Virus genome (UHGV): UHGV-0243446
From: a virus
Strand: one strand, 5' to 3'
DNA: 11,725 nucleotides
How positions within the stretch are numbered: position 1 is the stretch's first letter; every line of letters starts with the position of its first letter. The translations under genes and the position numbers were made by a program. The notes under the pieces are model-generated. The model was not told the DNA's origin, searched no databases, and was given only the letters and a program-made list of their open reading frames with translations. Positions 3,434 through 11,475 of the stretch are shown in pieces.

Positions 3434-3730
3434 TCAGTCATTACTGATAGCGCCATAGCGTGAGCGGTAATTACGCAGGCGCGGGTCGATATATTCAGGG
3501 AAGTGGGTATATGTGGCTTTGCGGAATGGTCGGATTGATGTCTGGTAAATTCGCTCGCGTTCTTCTTTCTCTGCAAGCCATATACAGTGGCGAAATTCCT
3601 TTTCCTCTTTCGTTTCCTGCGGTAGCGACATTATCCGATCGTAGTTTTTTCTGAATTTATCCAGCACCTCCGATACGGAATTGCCGGAACAGCGGCGCGC
3701 GTCATCCGCACCATACAAAGGCGCTGGCAT
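3434..3730 (-). CDS. Hypothetical basic protein (98 aa)
   Basis: ATG at 3730 with AGGAG RBS 6 nt upstream; directly follows the SSB stop. Confidence 0.55.
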
Positions 3731-3743
3731 GTTTTTCTCCTGA

Positions 3744-4250
3744 TTAAATTGCGTGAATAGCGTGACGAGGGAAGGGGAGAGTTACTGGTGCAAAGGGTAT
3801 ATCGTCGTCAAAATCCATCGGAGGTTCGTTGTGTTGTGCTGGTGATGATTGCTGCTGTGGCTTCTGTGATTGCCTGCTGGCTGCTTGTTGTTTGCTGTCG
3901 CCAATGCCGCCAAGCATTTGCATCACGCCATTAATTCCGACATGAACCTCGGTTGTGTAACGGTCTTGCCCTGACTGGTCTTTCCACTTTCTGGTTCTCA
4001 GCATTCCCTCGAAATAAATCTGATCACCTTTTTTCACATACCGCCCAACGACCTCAGCCAGTTTCCCGGATACAGCAACACGATGCCATTCAGTCAATTC
4101 CTTTTGCTCGCCAGTATTTTTATCTCGCCATTGTTCTGACGTGGCTATTGTCAGGTTAGCGAACGCTGTTCCTGATGGTGAGTATCGAACTTCCGGGTCT
4201 TGTCCTACCCGACCAAGGATAATCACCTTATTTACGCCTCTGCTTGCCAT
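3744..4250 (-). CDS. ssb: Single-stranded DNA-binding protein (SSB) with C-terminal extension
   Basis: N-terminus [13 protein letters not shown]...DPEVRY...TEWHRV...[11 protein letters not shown] closely resembles E. coli SSB, followed by a Gln/Ser-rich tail and [10 protein letters not shown]. The ORF then continues 15 codons ([15 protein letters not shown]) before the stop. Confidence 0.9.
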
Positions 4251-4958
4251 TTATGCCGCCTGTTTTAGTTCGTTAACTCTGATGTTCATTACCTGAACGC
4301 ATTTAGCCTGCGCCTCCTCGTTGCCAGCCATTAATTGCCAGTCACGCTGATAACGCTCGATGAGTTTTTTCTTGTCAGTTTCTGTTGACGCATAATCGCT
4401 GAAGTCTTTCAGGATTTGTTCGCAGTCAACCGATGGAGATTTCTGGTTGGTATTTTCTGGTGATGGTTTGTTATCTGATGCTGGGATTGCCCATCCCGGC
4501 AGCGATGGAGGAAGCCAGTAAAATCCTGTTCCATCCTTCAGTTTTGCCCTGTGCCACCCCTGCTTTTTATCGAGAGATGTTTGTGCGAAACCTTCCTCAA
4601 GGTTATACAGATACCGACCGATTCCCCATTGAACGGCAGCACGCTTCATTGCACCGGAACGACCACCTTTGACGGCTTCTACCTGCGTGTTTTCAGCAGC
4701 ATCCCATTTGGTTACCCATTCGGAATCAATCCTGATTGATATGCCGCATTCAACGCCTCCGTTGTTGGGAATATCGCGGTATTCATTGCGCCATCCTGCT
4801 TTGCCGCAAACATCGTCCAGGCGTTTCATGATTGCCCGGTTCGTGACATAAGCCAGCACCATAGCCCACACTTTGCCATCGCGTGTTTTACCGCTTTGCT
4901 GTATTCGCCATTCGATATCTTCAGGGCTGAATGGCTCATCGAATTTGTTCAAATCCAT
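4251..4958 (-). CDS. Rad52/Rad22-family single-strand annealing protein (phage recombinase)
   Basis: ATG at 4958 with GAGGTGA RBS. Core region (KWDAAENTQVEAVKGGRSGAMKRAAVQWGIGRYLY) resembles the conserved Rad52 annealing fold. Sits immediately upstream of ssb (TAAATG junction). Confidence 0.65.
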   Translation of the reverse strand: MDLNKFDEPFSPEDIEWRIQQSGKTRDGKVWAMVLAYVTNRAIMKRLDDVCGKAGWRNEYRDIPNNGGVECGISIRIDSEWVTKWDAAENTQVEAVKGGRSGAMKRAAVQWGIGRYLYNLEEGFAQTSLDKKQGWHRAKLKDGTGFYWLPPSLPGWAIPASDNKPSPENTNQKSPSVDCEQILKDFSDYASTETDKKKLIERYQRDWQLMAGNEEAQAKCVQVMNIRVNELKQAA

Positions 4959-5473: not shown

Positions 5474-5707
5474 CTATTGATTCTTTTCAAGAACATCAAT
5501 GATGTCGTCCGGGTTGTCTCCGTTGTCTTCACAAAATGCTTCGAATTCAGCCCATTTCGCGCTGATAAAATCAATTACTCTCATTAATTCGTATTCCATA
5601 TTTTTCTCCAGACCAAAAGAATGCCGCCCATATAGAGCGGCAAGACTATCAAGGAATGATTTCCAATAATCAGAACAAGTCGGCTCCTGTTTAGTTACGA
5701 GCGACAT
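5474..5707 (-). CDS. Hypothetical protein (77 aa; possible alternative start about 5599 giving 41 aa)
   Basis: ATG at 5707 with a weak RBS; an internal ATG about 5599 has a GGAG RBS. Followed on the minus strand by a GCCGCC/GGCGGC hairpin. Confidence 0.4.
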   Translation of the reverse strand: MSLVTKQEPTCSDYWKSFLDSLAALYGRHSFGLEKNMEYELMRVIDFISAKWAEFEAFCEDNGDNPDDIIDVLEKNQ

Positions 5708-5744
5708 TGCTCACATAGCAGACTCGCAAATCTGCTATAGGTGC

Positions 5745-5906
5745 TTATTCGCATCGCATGACAACATCAAATTTTTCGAGATTACTTTGTCGCAACAATC
5801 CCTCTTCTACGCGGTCAGCTTTTCTATAATTATCAAATTCGAAATGTTTAATTACTTCTTTCGTTTCTCGCTCTATAACTTCAACGATGTATTTCTTATT
5901 CATCAT
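5745..5906 (-). CDS. Hypothetical small protein (about 53 aa)
   Basis: Absent from the ORF track. ATGATG start overlaps the stop of the 98-aa gene; GGGGAAG RBS-like sequence upstream. Product MMNKKYIVEVIERETKEVIKHFEF... Coordinates +/- 2 nt. Confidence 0.35.
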   Translation of the reverse strand: MMNKKYIVEVIERETKEVIKHFEFDNYRKADRVEEGLLRQSNLEKFDVVMRCE

Positions 5907-6199
5907 TCTTCCCCAAGAGCTTTTCTGATTGCTGCAAGACCATTATTAACAGCTCCATACCATTCTGGATATGTTGTCGTTGTTCTATTTTTGGTTTGCT
6001 TAAGTAATAACTGAAGTGCTTCGAGAAGGTCAGGTGCTGCCGCTATTAGATTGGCATCTTCAATGCATTGAACTTCCTCACAGATTGCAATATACGAACG
6101 CCAGCCTGCGCCATTTTCAAGTGAGTCTGCCTGGATTATTTTAATCTCGTCGCCATCCATCATTATTTCCCACTTGCCTTCAGTACCTTTAAATTCCAT
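5903..6199 (-). CDS. Hypothetical protein (98 aa), in the ea10-like position
   Basis: ATG at 6199; sits between the ral-like and cIII-like genes. No recognised domain. Confidence 0.55.
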   Translation of the reverse strand: MEFKGTEGKWEIMMDGDEIKIIQADSLENGAGWRSYIAICEEVQCIEDANLIAAAPDLLEALQLLLKQTKNRTTTTYPEWYGAVNNGLAAIRKALGEE

Positions 6200-9172: not shown

Positions 9173-10049
9173 GTTAGCTGATTACAGGCATAACCCTGTA
9201 CAACATCAGGAGGCATCCAGTATGGGGTATGTCTCTATACACCGCCAGTTTATGGACAGCAGGCTCTATAAGGACTCTCAGGCAGTACATCTTTGGCTTC
9301 ACTTAATCCTCAAGGCTAATCACGAATCTACTGTCGTCAATACGGATATCGGTCCGATAACTGTTGATCGCGGTCAGATGATAACTGGACGCCCGTCGCT
9401 GGTCAGAGAAACATTCATCCCCGACAACAAAGTTCGGAGCTTATTACGGACTTTTGAGTCGAAAGGGATGCTTAATATTTGCTCGATGGGGAAGAAATTT
9501 AGCCTGTTTACAATCGTTAAATATGACGATTTTCAGGCAAAAAATTGTCCAACGGTTGTCCAACGGTTGTCCAACGCAAACACCAGTAATGGCGCGGCTC
9601 TCAGCGGAGATTGTCCAACGGTTGTCCAACGGTTGTCCATAAACAATAATATAAATAATATCTCTAATACTGACGTATTAGAGAGTGCCACAGCAGACAA
9701 AAAGTCTGACAAGAAAAAACCTTCCGTCAGCTGTCAGGATGTTGTCGATGCTTACCACGAAATCCTTCCTGAAGCGCCAAGAATCCGCGCACTGAATGAC
9801 AAGCGTAAAAACCAGATCCGAACGTTCTGGCGCAAAGCCGGAGTGATAACCCGCCAGCTTGACGGGCATGGGTTCACGATGCAGGACTGGAGAAATTATT
9901 TGAGCTACGTAGGCGAAAATTGCCGATGGATGTTCGAAGAACGCCCAAACCATCAACGCGGAACCGTCTGGCACAAAAAGGGATTTGATTTCCTGCTTAA
10001 CGACAATACCTACCTGAAAGTTCGTGAGGGTGAACACGATGACCGATAA
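9159..10049 (+). CDS. Replication initiator (lambda O-like / replisome organiser) containing the origin iterons
   Basis: Sits in the O position and is translationally coupled to the helicase. Iterons and an AT-rich tract lie inside the coding sequence, as ori-lambda lies inside O. An alternative start at ATG 9222 has a strong AGGAGG RBS. Confidence 0.7.
   Translation: MGVVKLADYRHNPVQHQEASSMGYVSIHRQFMDSRLYKDSQAVHLWLHLILKANHESTVVNTDIGPITVDRGQMITGRPSLVRETFIPDNKVRSLLRTFESKGMLNICSMGKKFSLFTIVKYDDFQAKNCPTVVQRLSNANTSNGAALSGDCPTVVQRLSINNNINNISNTDVLESATADKKSDKKKPSVSCQDVVDAYHEILPEAPRIRALNDKRKNQIRTFWRKAGVITRQLDGHGFTMQDWRNYLSYVGENCRWMFEERPNHQRGTVWHKKGFDFLLNDNTYLKVREGEHDDR
9545..9643. repeat. Phage replication origin iterons: six copies of an 11-bp repeat TTGTCCAACGG in two triplets
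   Basis: Copies at 9545-9577 and 9611-9643 with 11-bp register. Followed by an AT-rich tract (9641-9665) and a 9-bp inverted repeat CTCTAATAC-TGAC-GTATTAGAG (about 9660-9685). Confidence 0.75.
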
Positions 10050-11475
10050 TTTTTATGCGCCGCCCCATAGCATCGAGGCAGAGCAGGCGGTTATTGGTGG
10101 ATTGCTTCTGGATGATGACAGCAGTGAGCGCGTCCGGAAAGTTCTGGCGATGCTGAAGCCTGATTCATTTTACAGCCGACCACACAAAATCCTTTTCGAA
10201 GAAATAACCAGAATGCACCGGGAGCAAAAGCCAGTAGATGGGCTGACGCTTTTCGATGAACTGGAGCGCAAATCGTTAACGGCGTCTGTTGGCGGTTTTG
10301 CTTATATCGCTGAGATCGCAAAGAACACGCCAAGCGCAGCAAACATCGTTGCCTATGCAATGCAGGTTCGTGAAACCGCAATGGAACGCTACGCCATCAA
10401 CCGCATGACTGAAGCGACGGAATTGCTCTATTCCCGCAACGGAATGACTGCAACGCAGAAGTACGAAGCTATTCAGGCGATTTTCACGCAACTGATAGAT
10501 CATGCAAAAACCGGATCGCGTCGCGGCCTTCGCTCATTTGGTGAGGTCATGGAAGACTGGGTTAGTGACCTTGAGAAGCGATTTGACCCATCAGGCGAAC
10601 AACGGGGAATGAGCACAGGGATCCCATCGCTGGACAGGATGCTGTCACCGAAAGGTCTGGTGAAAGGCTCTCTGTTTGTCATTGGCGCCCGCCCTAAGAT
10701 GGGGAAAACGACGCTATACAGCCAGATGGCAATCAATTGCGCAGTGCATGAGAAAAAGCCCGCTTTGATGTTCAGCCTTGAAATGCCAGGTGATCAGATA
10801 CTGGAAAAACTGGTAGGGCAGAAGTCTGGTGTTAACCCGAATATTTTTTACCTTCCGGCGACAAATGACGCTGATGACGGCTATCAGGGTGATTACGATG
10901 GTGACTTCAACAGGGCGATCGAAACAGCCAATCGCTTGAGTGAAATCGACCTGCTTTACATCGACGACACGCCGGGATTATCTCTGGCTCAAATCGTCAG
11001 CGAAAGCCGTCGAATCAAGCGAGAAAAAGGATGTGTTGGCATGATTCTGGTCGATTACCTGACACTAATGACCGCTGAGAAGGCCGATCGCAACGACCTT
11101 GCTTACGGCATGATCACCAAAGGACTGAAGAACCTTGCCAAAGAGCTTGATTGCGTTGTTGTGCTTCTGACACAGCTTAACCGCGCACTGGAAAGCCGAA
11201 CCAATAAACGCCCATTACCAAGTGACTCACGAGATACAGGGCAGATTGAACAGGATTGCGATTATTGGGTCGGGATCCATCGTGAAGGCGCTTTTGATGA
11301 CAGTGTTCCACCTGGTGAAACTGAACTAATCCTTCGTCTCAATCGTCATGGCAATACCGGCACGGTGTATTGCATTCAGGCAAATGGCGCTATTTATGAC
11401 ACAGACCAACAGTCTGCTGAAATGCGCCGCCGTGAACGCGAGGAACCGCAGTCCAAGAAGAAAGGAGGATTCTGA
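10039..11475 (+). CDS. DnaB-family replicative DNA helicase
   Basis: N-terminal PHSIEAEQAVIGGLL motif typical of DnaB. Walker A GARPKMGKTT; Walker B-like ILVDYLTLM. ATG 10039 with GAGGGTGA RBS overlaps the O-like stop. The track start at 10024 is a GTG. Confidence 0.9.
   Translation: MTDNFYAPPHSIEAEQAVIGGLLLDDDSSERVRKVLAMLKPDSFYSRPHKILFEEITRMHREQKPVDGLTLFDELERKSLTASVGGFAYIAEIAKNTPSAANIVAYAMQVRETAMERYAINRMTEATELLYSRNGMTATQKYEAIQAIFTQLIDHAKTGSRRGLRSFGEVMEDWVSDLEKRFDPSGEQRGMSTGIPSLDRMLSPKGLVKGSLFVIGARPKMGKTTLYSQMAINCAVHEKKPALMFSLEMPGDQILEKLVGQKSGVNPNIFYLPATNDADDGYQGDYDGDFNRAIETANRLSEIDLLYIDDTPGLSLAQIVSESRRIKREKGCVGMILVDYLTLMTAEKADRNDLAYGMITKGLKNLAKELDCVVVLLTQLNRALESRTNKRPLPSDSRDTGQIEQDCDYWVGIHREGAFDDSVPPGETELILRLNRHGNTGTVYCIQANGAIYDTDQQSAEMRRREREEPQSKKKGGF

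Follow-up and report, generated by a model that had tools for sequence, protein, structure and literature searches.

A conserved 15-residue extension behind an internal DDDIPF tip in phage SSB proteins, and a probable endonuclease insertion point at its boundary

A large class of phage and prophage SSB proteins carries its acidic DDDIPF tip internally, capped by a conserved segment of 15 residues, and the boundary between the tip and this extension is very probably the point at which a family of homing endonuclease genes inserts. A free DDDIPF end is regarded as what defines SSB as an interaction hub in bacteria, and in E. coli Exonuclease I, RecQ, PriA, chi and other proteins dock on this end (SSB-Ct). 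The main new result, as judged from the junctions compared below, is the link between the endonuclease and the tip/extension boundary. The gene from which the analysis starts lies in a stretch of 11,725 nucleotides from the virus genome UHGV-0243446, here called the window.

We propose an explanation in three layers, in which tip and extension form a shared tail unit, their boundary serves as an endonuclease insertion point and the extension acts as a second docking element. Taken as a whole we lean modestly towards this explanation, and its layers are held at the different strengths given with each.

The ssb gene and its C-terminal anatomy

The product of ssb is, by its domain matches and its neighbours, a bacterial-type SSB within a phage recombination module. 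It matches Pfam PF00436 over residues 6-104 (E = 5.3e-36) and PHROG 44 (E = 5e-66), and an AlphaFold2 run that used 45 homologues gave a confident OB fold of beta strands and one helix (pLDDT of about 75-91 in 10-residue blocks), followed by a disordered linker and the acidic ...DDDIPF tip. The tip is not the free C-terminus of the protein, since 15 more residues precede the stop. The features referred to in the text are as follows:

3744..4250, minus strand: ssb, 168 amino acids plus stop (ORF list; Pfam PF00436, E = 5e-36; PHROG 44; the same CDS is annotated in phage HK75)
3939..4235, minus strand: OB-fold ssDNA-binding domain, residues 6-104 (Pfam extent; AlphaFold2 model)
3828..3911, minus strand: Q-rich disordered linker, residues 114-141, poorly conserved (pLDDT about 30; entropy 1.80 bits)
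3792..3827, minus strand: acidic tip, residues 142-153, of the same sequence as the E. coli SSB tip but internal here (sequence; PDB match)
3792-3809, minus strand: DDDIPF, residues 148-153 (sequence)
3790..3791, minus strand: insertion point of the HNH homing endonuclease in related phages, the 'GC' of codon A154 being replaced in Huey (blastn of window against Huey)
3747..3791, minus strand: 15-residue extension, residues 154-168 (sequence; entropy 0.58 bits; predicted disordered)
3747..3764, minus strand: tandem HAI-HAI codon repeat, CAC GCT ATT CAC GCA ATT, at the end of the extension (sequence)
3744..3746, minus strand: ssb stop codon TAA, with the abc2 start codon 13 nt further downstream (sequence)
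4251..4958, minus strand: upstream gene for a Rad52/Erf-like single-strand annealing protein, its stop abutting the ssb start (Pfam PF04098, E = 7e-26; HK75 annotation)
3434..3730, minus strand: downstream gene abc2, anti-RecBCD protein (Pfam PF11043, E = 4e-61; HK75 annotation)

The layout is that of E. coli SSB, which belongs to the same PF00436 OB family and likewise has a disordered linker followed by the tip; 13 residues of the tip region are identical to those of PDB chains 1eqq and 4mz9. The window protein differs in that its tip is internal, is followed by 15 conserved residues and offers no Phe alpha-carboxylate of the kind held by the known pockets (PMC3159472). An earlier note on this DNA had correctly described DDDIPF as internal to the reading frame, with 15 residues and then the stop, and was right that this departs from the textbook free SSB C-terminus; the interval it marked, 3744-3800, comprises IPF, the extension and the stop.

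The extension is predicted to be disordered (AlphaFold2 pLDDT of about 32 over residues 115-168), and capping of the OB fold by the protein's own tail finds no support in the model, where the tail is undocked. A hairpin or translational coupling from the extension to the abc2 ribosome-binding site was also considered and rejected (-5.5 kcal/mol, z = +1.5), and no promoter or terminator was found inside or adjoining the extension.

Distribution and conservation of the tail

Tip and extension almost certainly constitute one conserved and widely shared tail unit, and the extension is, by its recurrence, a widespread, inherited and regular part of the gene. Phage HK75 is 99.1% identical to the window and has a 507-nt ssb annotated at the same place, and the tail is found in phages mEp235 and epsilon34 as well. 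The ssb gene is present in 304 of 5,426 complete E. coli genomes (coverage of at least 80%), about 105 of the best 120 protein clusters at 90% identity have the extension, and so do at least 325 loci in IMG/VR. The unit is common at the SSB C-terminus in phages and prophages of Enterobacterales and Vibrio, with the consensus DDDIPF-[AS]P[VI][TG]L[PQ][FY]x[RK][HN]x[IM][HY]x[IL]-COOH. A variant of 15-16 residues occurs in loci adjoining DUF3577 and topoisomerase, neighbours that suggest integrative conjugative elements, and tails of this type end with an extra Ser (...YAIS), the final residue thus not being fixed.

Against this background, an error or a recent stop-loss in this one genome, as the earlier note had entertained, has a negligible probability, and only the departure from the textbook SSB end speaks for it. 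The same 168-aa protein is found in independent phages, in hundreds of E. coli genomes and in many genera, which argues against a sequencing or assembly error, and the same tail recurs in HK75, mEp235, epsilon34 and hundreds of genomes and contigs. A recent inactivating stop-loss is opposed by codon 154, which reads GCA and lies more than one step from a stop, by the mostly synonymous variation of the 15 codons and by the retention of the extension across genera. By the earlier note's own measure, which was how common the extension is, its reading as an anomaly fails, the extension having proved common among SSB homologues. A run of 15 sense codons after a motif proves nothing by itself, because the chance of it is (61/64)^15, or about 0.5; the significance comes from recurrence together with conservation.

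The tail also stands on proteins that are not homologous to the window SSB, namely two further SSB-like families (a PHROG 743 SSB beside a Sak4-like ATPase, and a two-OB protein of PHROG 4477) and primase-helicases with a DnaB_C domain, and tails on different scaffolds differ at synonymous sites. It lies beside four unrelated families of annealing protein (Rad52-like, ERF, RecT/YqaJ and the Sak4-like AAA_24), and on this evidence it is independent of the annealing-protein family of the element. This modularity across unrelated proteins was not foreseen in the earlier note, nor was the role of the boundary as an insertion point.

Wider searches recovered mainly the tip or fragments. A PDB sequence and profile search with the tail matched the tip only, the extension occurring in no solved chain, and a literature search for the motif strings gave no relevant match. 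The 32-residue tail had only 14 matches, mostly fragments, among 1.84 billion cluster representatives, a set in which clustering at 50% identity hides the tail, and a profile of 11 tails returned only short partial proteins from a 5.8-billion-protein set, with Proteus, Providencia, Serratia, Tatumella, Hafnia and Vibrio among the taxa.

Mean column entropy is 0.42 bits for the OB domain, 1.80 for the linker, 0.30 for the tip and 0.58 for the extension (the last over 42 extension-bearing homologues), so that by this measure the extension is about on a par with the OB fold, the linker being free to vary. Across 34 distinct DNA sequences of the VTLPFPRH type, codon variants in the extension are synonymous in 12 cases and change the amino acid in 4; for the tip the figures are 15 and 1. 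A pooled comparison with 16 diverged genes gives pN/pS values of 0.07 (tip), 0.32 (OB domain) and 0.40 (extension). The length is fixed at 15 residues with neither premature stops nor frameshifts in about 105 cluster representatives, the sole exception in length being an in-frame deletion of 9 bp between the HAI units that restores the HAI end (...PRHAI; P0001, the representative of a cluster of 588 members).

Not all of this conservation counts equally. Among genes of Klebsiella, Salmonella and Kluyvera the extension shows a synonymous divergence of 0.24-0.41; the OB domain, at 0.78-0.89, and the tip have far more. This points to recent sharing or conversion of the extension's DNA; part of the apparent conservation would therefore not be independent. 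Endonuclease-free extensions in Proteus, Providencia, Xenorhabdus, Tatumella, Mixta and Vibrio have synonymous divergences of 0.64-0.94, and the peptide is still recognisable. Between the endonuclease-free tails of KpS11 and NINP13076, read in the SSB frame, there are 5 synonymous codon changes and 1 replacement; in the +1 frame, in which the endonuclease is read elsewhere, these differences would alter 4 amino acids. These two tails come from different genera of Vequintavirinae.

A Rv2179c-like exonuclease gene in the interval between ssb and abc2 of mEp235 and epsilon34 was considered as the cause of the extension and discarded, as it lies past the extension's stop and the extension is identical with or without it.

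Endonuclease genes at the tip/extension boundary

The boundary, at the Phe codon (3790-3792), is very probably an insertion point of PHROG 2340 His-Me/HNH genes, as indicated by junctions in two groups of phages. In Huey a cassette of 440 bp stands in place of the 2 nt at 3790-3791. Blastn against the window finds 97.8% identity on one side and 97.7% on the other; homology includes the whole F153 codon, breaks off there and resumes with the final base of codon 154. In both Sf6 and Huey, examples from the lambdoid and P22-like phages, the HNH endonuclease gene lies exactly between F153 and P155, the SSB has a free ...IPF end and the endonuclease carries the last 14 extension residues as its own C-terminus. 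Nearly all of 65 IMG/VR endonuclease loci have this same order, an SSB stopping at ...IPF followed by an HNH protein with the 14 residues at its end.

In rV5-like phages the arrangement is a different one: a single cassette of 652 bp, with its start at the third position of the Phe codon, brings in the 15 codons along with an endonuclease from this family. This cassette separates DrSchubert from CarlMeissner, whose flanks are 97.7% and 99.1% identical. Among the matches listed, extension and endonuclease always occur together in these phages and every allele ending in IPF is without the endonuclease. The same overlap architecture is seen behind a Seunavirus primase-helicase and a PHROG 743-like SSB of a Sodalis prophage. 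From the Sf6/Huey and rV5-like junctions it follows that the window, like HK75, holds the endonuclease-free allele.

The inserted frames match the PHROG 2340 'endonuclease' profile (E = 4e-39 for Huey and 7e-37 for NINP13076), the NINP13076 frame has weaker matches to HNH and endonuclease VII PHROGs, and a motif AHHCDYSKP...WLC..CH..WH can be seen in the sequence; a Pfam search of the inserted ORF gave no match. An ORF of the His-Me/HNH class that is present or absent at one position between near-identical flanks, with substitutions clustered beside it in the occupied allele, is what a homing-endonuclease target would present. Huey has 8 differences within the last 30 nt to the left of the junction, and the tips of occupied alleles are recoded (NFDDEIPF in Huey, DDSDIPF in Sf6, DFCDDIPF in DrSchubert), substitutions which may shield the occupied allele from self-cleavage. 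Degenerate SSB-HNH fusion remnants also exist (P0264 and P0265).

The extension is not native to the endonuclease: in most homologues ...PIYP[DE]E is the very end and the 14 residues are missing, and of the 155 residues the PHROG 2340 profile reaches only as far as 139. An origin as the native C-terminus of the endonuclease is ruled out on this ground.

Free-standing homing endonucleases are known to move by intron-less homing, inserting into or beside conserved phage genes, and the 'genes in pieces' of phage Aeh1, in which nrdA is split by mobE, are an example. The present case shares with these an endonuclease ORF present or absent at one nucleotide between flanks 97-99% identical, clustered substitutions in the target beside the insertion, and the fusion remnants. 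It differs in that the insertion falls within the last 16 codons and splits a short docking peptide in two, in that the endonuclease takes over the last 14 codons and the stop of the host gene, and in that members of the family in other phages have the 15 codons ahead of them. The 'HNH nuclease' that has been assigned to lambdoid recombination modules (PMC12315714) is, for Sf6 and Huey at least and judging from the position of the junctions, an insertion into the ssb tail and no component of the recombination module.

Possible roles of the extension

Whether the extension is a working second docking element we regard as evenly balanced. Such a role is the most likely one because the extension, in endonuclease-free genes, is in frame, of fixed length and changed mainly synonymously, and because the internal tip is invariant. 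The tail would present a longer peptide to a partner encoded by the host, and the extension may change which partners the tip engages. Canonical SSB-Ct pockets hold the alpha-carboxyl of the terminal Phe (PMC3159472). Near-invariance of the tip in extension-bearing genes suggests that it is still used there. The earlier note had also offered a deliberate variant unable to recruit host partners; the direction of that suggestion was right, but 'cannot recruit' fits awkwardly with the near-invariance of the internal tip. We take the core of the extension, PVTLPF, to resemble the clamp-binding QLSLPL of Hda and the sliding-clamp motif QL[SD]LF / QLxLxL; in the PV[TG]L[PQ][FY] core the leading Gln of that motif is replaced by an invariant Pro.

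The main rival, which we think unlikely but weighty, is that the extension is a by-product of homing: its 45 nt would be the first part of the endonuclease cassette, left in frame after loss of the endonuclease and idle for the SSB. The apparent conservation would then have two sources: in active cassettes the extension overlaps the endonuclease's ribosome-binding site, its start codon and its first nine codons, and homing repeatedly transfers the same DNA from one genome to another. The strict association of extension and endonuclease among the rV5-like matches listed, the start of the cassette at the third base of the Phe codon, the recurrence of the overlap architecture in the Seunavirus and Sodalis loci and a synonymous divergence that, in enterobacterial prophages, is lower in the extension than in its flanks all favour it. 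Tip-only alleles, moreover, are common and viable in the same gene families (the SSBs of Sf6 and Huey, most rV5-like PHROG 4477 proteins, the KB57 primase-helicase and the prophage SSBs P0008 and P0011), so the extension is dispensable in some backgrounds at least. Several of these points also count against a docking element: tip-only alleles are viable, the rV5-like extension may be a mere part of the cassette, and the low synonymous divergence points to sharing of the DNA. Against the by-product stand the endonuclease-free extensions that remain recognisable across six genera, the fixed length without stops or frameshifts bar the one in-frame deletion, the KpS11/NINP13076 differences, which spare the SSB frame rather than that of the endonuclease, the lack of an endonuclease start codon in the lambdoid-type extension, and a peptide foreign to the endonuclease family. 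The 14 codons fused to the endonuclease look constrained too (10 synonymous against 7 mostly singleton replacement variants, the common variants being mostly synonymous), and with an SSB-fused sample too uniform for comparison this contrast does not separate the two models.

A regulatory cap is improbable, whether as a mask that a protease takes off the tip or as a C-terminal degradation tag keeping down the amount of phage SSB. With its basic residues and final ...AI, the extension resembles a MuA-type ClpX signal at its end; the tail is disordered in the AlphaFold2 model, [IM][HY]x[IL] is retained as the C-terminal pattern, loss of one unit of the HAI-HAI repeat leaves a variant that again ends in HAI, and the tip, internal as it is, does not vary. 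A degron or mask, however, has no need of the conserved AP[VI][TG]L[PQ][FY] half, and the ...YAIS end of conjugative-element-type tails means that the exact C-terminal residue varies. Still less probable, and rejected here, is a private docking site for the phage's own Erf/Rad52-like annealing protein. It is suggested by the position of ssb directly after the annealing-protein gene and by HK620 SSB, whose last six residues are needed to stimulate Sak4 (PMC5928155), but the same tail stands beside Rad52-like, ERF, RecT/YqaJ and Sak4-like AAA_24 proteins instead of following one annealing family, and it also occurs in DUF3577/topoisomerase contexts, in lytic Vequintavirinae and on primase-helicases. 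HK620 SSB is likewise the SSB of a lambdoid recombination module whose C-terminal tail is needed with a partner (Hutinet et al. 2018, PMC5928155), and differs in that its tail, NDYPPF, is a free C-terminus with one matched partner. According to a 2025 survey the SSBs of lambdoid Rec modules are without experimental study (PMC12315714).

A parallel to tails shared between proteins is found in T7, where gp2.5 (SSB) and gp4 (helicase-primase) have a common acidic, Phe-terminated tail that binds the phage polymerase. In Mydovirus and Seunavirus the SSB-like protein and the primase-helicase both carry DDD[IT]PF(+15), with a DNA polymerase gene adjacent, and a T7-type tail shared by SSB and helicase alongside the phage's own polymerase is found in KpS11 and NINP13076; T7 tails differ in ending at Phe. 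The window has no such pair, its DnaB-type helicase (10024-11475) ending in ...KKKGGF without the tip, and there is no DNA polymerase gene in its ORF list.

Returning to the docking element, we put forward tentatively, and as a rather unlikely extension of it, that tip and extension form a portable module that re-targets the ssDNA-binding proteins of mobile elements, and that PHROG 2340 endonucleases recognise the tip DNA and transfer the module between unrelated genes or cut it off them. Binding could then shift from partners that require the free carboxylate, such as Exonuclease I, towards another host hub, or the protein could compete with host SSB, and some primase-helicases of mobile elements would be re-targeted in the same way. 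The rV5-like two-OB SSB-like protein Bas52_0087 triggers the DRT10 reverse-transcriptase defence, and its authors, in the available portion of the preprint, name its FDDDIPF 'C-tip' and propose competition with Exonuclease I (bioRxiv 10.64898/2026.04.29.721553); that portion does not mention the extension. Locus tags alone suggest that it is the counterpart of bas48_0087 of CarlMeissner (408 residues) and bas50_0088 of DrSchubert (423 residues), both of PHROG 4477, a family in which, among the matches listed, only alleles with a downstream endonuclease have the extension. It differs from the window SSB, which has the canonical single OB fold.

The capped tail is therefore common to unrelated replication and recombination proteins, and conjugative-element SSBs possibly belong to the same capped class. 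Because the homing endonuclease family acts exactly at the boundary, near-isogenic natural pairs with and without the cap exist (HK75/Huey, DrSchubert/CarlMeissner and K54_rec6/KB57). They raise the questions of whether the cap changes host recruitment, whether it shields 3' ssDNA ends from Exonuclease I in Abc2/Erf-type recombination, and whether it alters the triggering of SSB-sensing defence. If the portable-module reading is true, alleles with the tip only and alleles with tip and extension could differ in triggering or evading SSB-sensing defences such as DRT10, and a selfish gene would rewire the partner set of the proteins it invades.

The ssb gene and its C-terminal extension

The DNA of the window comes from a lambdoid phage, of which it is the early-left, immunity and replication region; across the 901 nt compared it is 99.1% identical to Escherichia phage HK75. 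The genes and segments that concern us are as follows:

4251-4958, minus strand: Rad52/Erf-like annealing protein gene
3744-4250, minus strand: ssb, 168 residues
3792-3809, minus strand: DDDIPF, the acidic docking tip (residues 148-153)
3747-3791, minus strand: extension (residues 154-168)
3744-3746, minus strand: ssb stop codon
3434-3730, minus strand: abc2 anti-RecBCD gene

The earlier note described an internal DDDIPF, a 15-residue extension and then a stop, and the ssb reading frame agrees with this exactly. The extension ends with a tandem HAI-HAI codon repeat (window 3747-3764); the Salmonella-named P0001, which represents a 588-member protein cluster (comparison locus L180:2501-2998), lacks one of the two units after an in-frame deletion of 9 bp, despite which its C-terminus still reads ...PRHAI. 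An ORF antisense within abc2 (window 3460-3654, plus strand), of which a motif search for IPF plus a short tail caught relatives at other loci, was rejected as spurious, since its resemblance to a second tip is due to chance.

A 507-nt ssb is annotated at the equivalent place in HK75, mEp235 and epsilon34, and the gene is present in 304 of 5,426 complete E. coli genomes (coverage at least 80%), which rules out the sequencing or assembly error considered in the earlier note. Its alternative of a stop-loss, taken as a recent event, fails as well, since the extension recurs in many genera with its peptide conserved. The extension terminates about 105 of the 120 closest protein clusters (90% identity), with sources in Escherichia, Salmonella, Klebsiella, Citrobacter, Enterobacter, Kluyvera, Pluralibacter and Phytobacter. 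A scan of one genome per species adds Lelliottia, Moellerella, Atlantibacter, Mixta, Trabulsiella, Proteus, Providencia, Tatumella, Xenorhabdus, Sodalis, Pectobacterium and Brenneria; its many remaining matches, presumably the hosts' own SSB genes, align only up to DDDIPF. The extension is also found in 123 plasmid records, those among the matches listed being of 41-68 kb except for one Providencia record of 146 kb, and in SSBs of E. coli and E. fergusonii plasmids (about 83-146 kb, among the matches listed) the match stops at DDDIPF.

Endonuclease cassettes at the tip/extension boundary

Between ssb and abc2, the related phages Sf6 and Huey have a gene for an HNH-type endonuclease; their SSBs end in a free tip (...NFDDSDIPF or ...NFDDEIPF), and the last 14 residues of the window SSB form the endonuclease C-terminus, as the GenBank note to Sf6 gp26 already mentions in calling 14 residues identical to 'E. 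coli SSB'. By blastn, window and Huey are 97.8% identical through the last base of codon F153 and 97.7% identical from the last base of codon A154 on, with a 440-bp cassette in Huey in place of two bases (window 3790-3791). Huey carries 8 substitutions in the last 30 nt left of the junction, so that the tip is recoded, and its extension codons to the right are identical to those of the window. We rejected the 14 residues as a native endonuclease C-terminus, because most homologues stop just after ...PIYP[DE]E and the profile of the endonuclease family, PHROG 2340, reaches only residue 139 of 155. In IMG/VR the endonuclease occurs in 65 loci, nearly all arranged as in Sf6 and Huey, and among 80 loci sampled via OB-domain similarity the extension is fused to SSB in 76 and split off by the endonuclease in 4. 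These comparisons show that the window carries the endonuclease-free allele of a PHROG 2340 site at the tip/extension boundary; both kinds of element involved, an SSB tail and a free-standing homing endonuclease site, are known. The protein clusters P0264 and P0265 are chimeras that begin as SSB and continue with the C-terminal half of the HNH endonuclease and the extension, whereas P0272 combines an HNH fragment with an Rv2179c-like exonuclease. All three appear to have arisen by deletion as an endonuclease insertion decayed.

The reverse arrangement is found in rV5-like phages, where the PHROG 4477 protein of CarlMeissner ends ...YSFDDDIPF and DrSchubert has a 652-bp cassette beginning at the third base of the Phe codon (flanks 97.7% and 99.1% identical). 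This cassette consists of 15 extension codons, a stop and a PHROG 2340-like endonuclease ORF, whose ATG is made by the extension codons TAT-GGC and which overlaps the last 29 nt. Among the Vequintavirus matches listed, all extension alleles have the endonuclease and all IPF-ending alleles are without it. The overlap also occurs behind a Seunavirus primase-helicase and a PHROG 743-like SSB of a Sodalis prophage. Some records here have stated hosts that look doubtful (MG0656xx, 'Campylobacter phage C2, A135, ...', and MH533020, 'Acinetobacter phage ABPH49'), being 93-96% identical in protein to rV5-like E. coli phages over the SSB-like tail region or classed in Vequintavirinae.

Other cassettes join at the same codon. 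The primase-helicase of the Mydovirus Klebsiella phage KB57 ends ...DDDTPF and that of K54_rec6 ends ...DDDTPF-APIGLQYAKHAIYVI, with 98% identity upstream and the breakpoint at the Phe codon; in KB57 the position of the extension is taken by a 155-residue ORF (L171:1630-2097), without a Pfam match, that follows immediately on the DDDTPF codons. The HNH_3-AP2 endonuclease of K54_rec6 is a separate insertion 56 nt downstream, and the intergenic 56-nt segment before it (L009:2582-2637), after the extended primase-helicase gene, is conserved and holds a GC-rich hairpin (GGTGGGC...GCCCACC). Some lambdoid prophage SSBs end in DDDIPF, followed by an unrelated downstream cassette. The variety of cassettes marks the tip Phe codon as a recurrent mosaic joint. 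PHROG 2340 endonucleases may recognise the DNA encoding the highly conserved tip, which would explain both their presence behind unrelated tip genes and the recoded tips of occupied alleles, and they may spread the extension to genes or cut it off.

Constraint on the tail and its portability

In a 45-homologue alignment, mean column entropy is 0.42 bits for the OB domain, 1.80 for the linker, 0.30 for the tip and 0.58 for the extension, in which P155 and L158 are invariant and H163 nearly so. In a set of 34 distinct DNA sequences for the VTLPFPRH-type tail, codon variants are 12 synonymous to 4 amino-acid in the extension and 15 to 1 in the tip. The window gene was also compared with 16 diverged extension-bearing genes; overall, constraint on the extension is about that on the OB fold.

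Substitution in the window ssb against 16 diverged extension-bearing genes
Region, pS, pN, pN/pS
OB domain, 0.78, 0.25, 0.32
Tip, about 1, 0.07, 0.07
Extension, 0.55, 0.22, 0.40

For genes from Klebsiella, Salmonella and Kluyvera, the extension has a synonymous divergence of 0.24-0.41, far below the values of both the OB domain (0.78-0.89) and the tip, and thus its DNA has been shared or converted later than that of the remaining gene. At the greater depth of Proteus, Providencia, Xenorhabdus, Tatumella, Mixta and Vibrio the value for the extension is 0.64-0.94, with the peptide still recognisable. The endonuclease-free tails of KpS11 (APIGLPYGRNFIHCI) and NINP13076 (APIGLQYGRNFIHCI), which belong to different Vequintavirinae genera, are 5 synonymous codons and 1 replacement apart, and the same nucleotide differences read in the +1 frame would give 4 replacements. 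The extension is shown to be a conserved peptide in endonuclease-free genes.

The AlphaFold2 model, built with 45 homologues, is confident for the OB fold and has a pLDDT of about 32 for residues 115-168, which make no contact with that fold. By tblastn, 146 phage records cover at least 80% of the 27-residue tail (tip plus extension), on these carriers:

canonical SSBs, including that of Vibrio phage 1.243.O
PHROG 743 SSB of 243 residues, adjoining a Sak4-like ATPase, in Citrobacter phage Omnitron
PHROG 4477 protein of Vequintavirinae, about 405-423 residues
144-residue relative of the PHROG 4477 protein
DnaB_C-type primase-helicases of Mydovirus and Seunavirus phages

KpS11 and NINP13076 each have two tail-bearing proteins. 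The tail is portable between unrelated proteins. The available part of a preprint on the reverse-transcriptase defence DRT10 presents the Bas52 protein as a two-OB SSB-like trigger with an 'FDDDIPF C-tip', remarking there on the tip motif only (bioRxiv 10.64898/2026.04.29.721553); judged from locus tags, this trigger appears to belong to the PHROG 4477 family. A 15-16-residue variant (LGFGYGVCRKAIYAIS, GPLGLSISNHGLYAIS and relatives) follows DDDIPF on SSBs adjoining DUF3577 genes (L107, L115, L127, L136, L142 and L161, at about 5500-6100 in each), with a TopoIII-type topoisomerase gene upstream in L107, the sole locus with that ORF scanned. This context suggests integrative conjugative elements, so that the tail idea exists outside phages.

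Docking element or cassette remnant

A literature search found no description of the SSB extension. In a 2025 survey, anti-RecBCD, SSB and annealing protein are grouped as an 'HK75-type' recombination module, whose SSBs it states to be unstudied and in which it counts the ES18 HNH nuclease as a probable member (PMC12315714). Between the ssb stop and abc2 of mEp235, epsilon34 and Klebsiella prophages there is a second presence/absence cassette directly behind the extension, a 182-residue Rv2179c-like (DnaQ-type) 3'-5' exonuclease gene (L002:2066-2614, L003:2066-2614, L326:3025-3573) that is absent from HK75 and from the window, where it would fall between 3731 and 3743. The extension-bearing Klebsiella prophage L326 also encodes, about 2 kb downstream, a DNA polymerase III theta homologue (PF06440, 4961-5218), another host-replisome-related gene of the same early operon.

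We favour, at about an even chance, the reading that the extension is a working docking element: the peptide is constrained in the SSB frame with no endonuclease nearby, the extension is fixed in length with truncations almost absent, and the internal tip stays invariant. The main rival, which we consider less probable, takes the extension for a tolerated piece of the endonuclease cassette. It is supported by the constant company of extension and endonuclease in the rV5-like matches listed, the viability of tip-only alleles and the low synonymous divergence of the extension in enterobacterial prophages.

Directly upstream of extension-bearing SSBs lie genes for Rad52-like, ERF-family, RecT or Sak4-like AAA_24 ATPase proteins, with a YqaJ exonuclease gene directly upstream of RecT in L095 and L101. 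A private SSB-Sak4 pairing has been demonstrated for phage HK620 (PMC5928155), but a handshake of this type is unlikely for the window tail because extension-bearing SSBs adjoin several annealing-protein families. In canonical partners the pocket grips both the side chain of the Phe and its alpha-carboxylate (PMC3159472), and for E. coli SSB a fusion at the C-terminus is described as likely to disturb its protein interactions (PMC7293020). That the capped tip is still under selection suggests a different, longer binding mode for the proposed docking element, and any specific partner of the extension would more likely be encoded by the host than by the phage.
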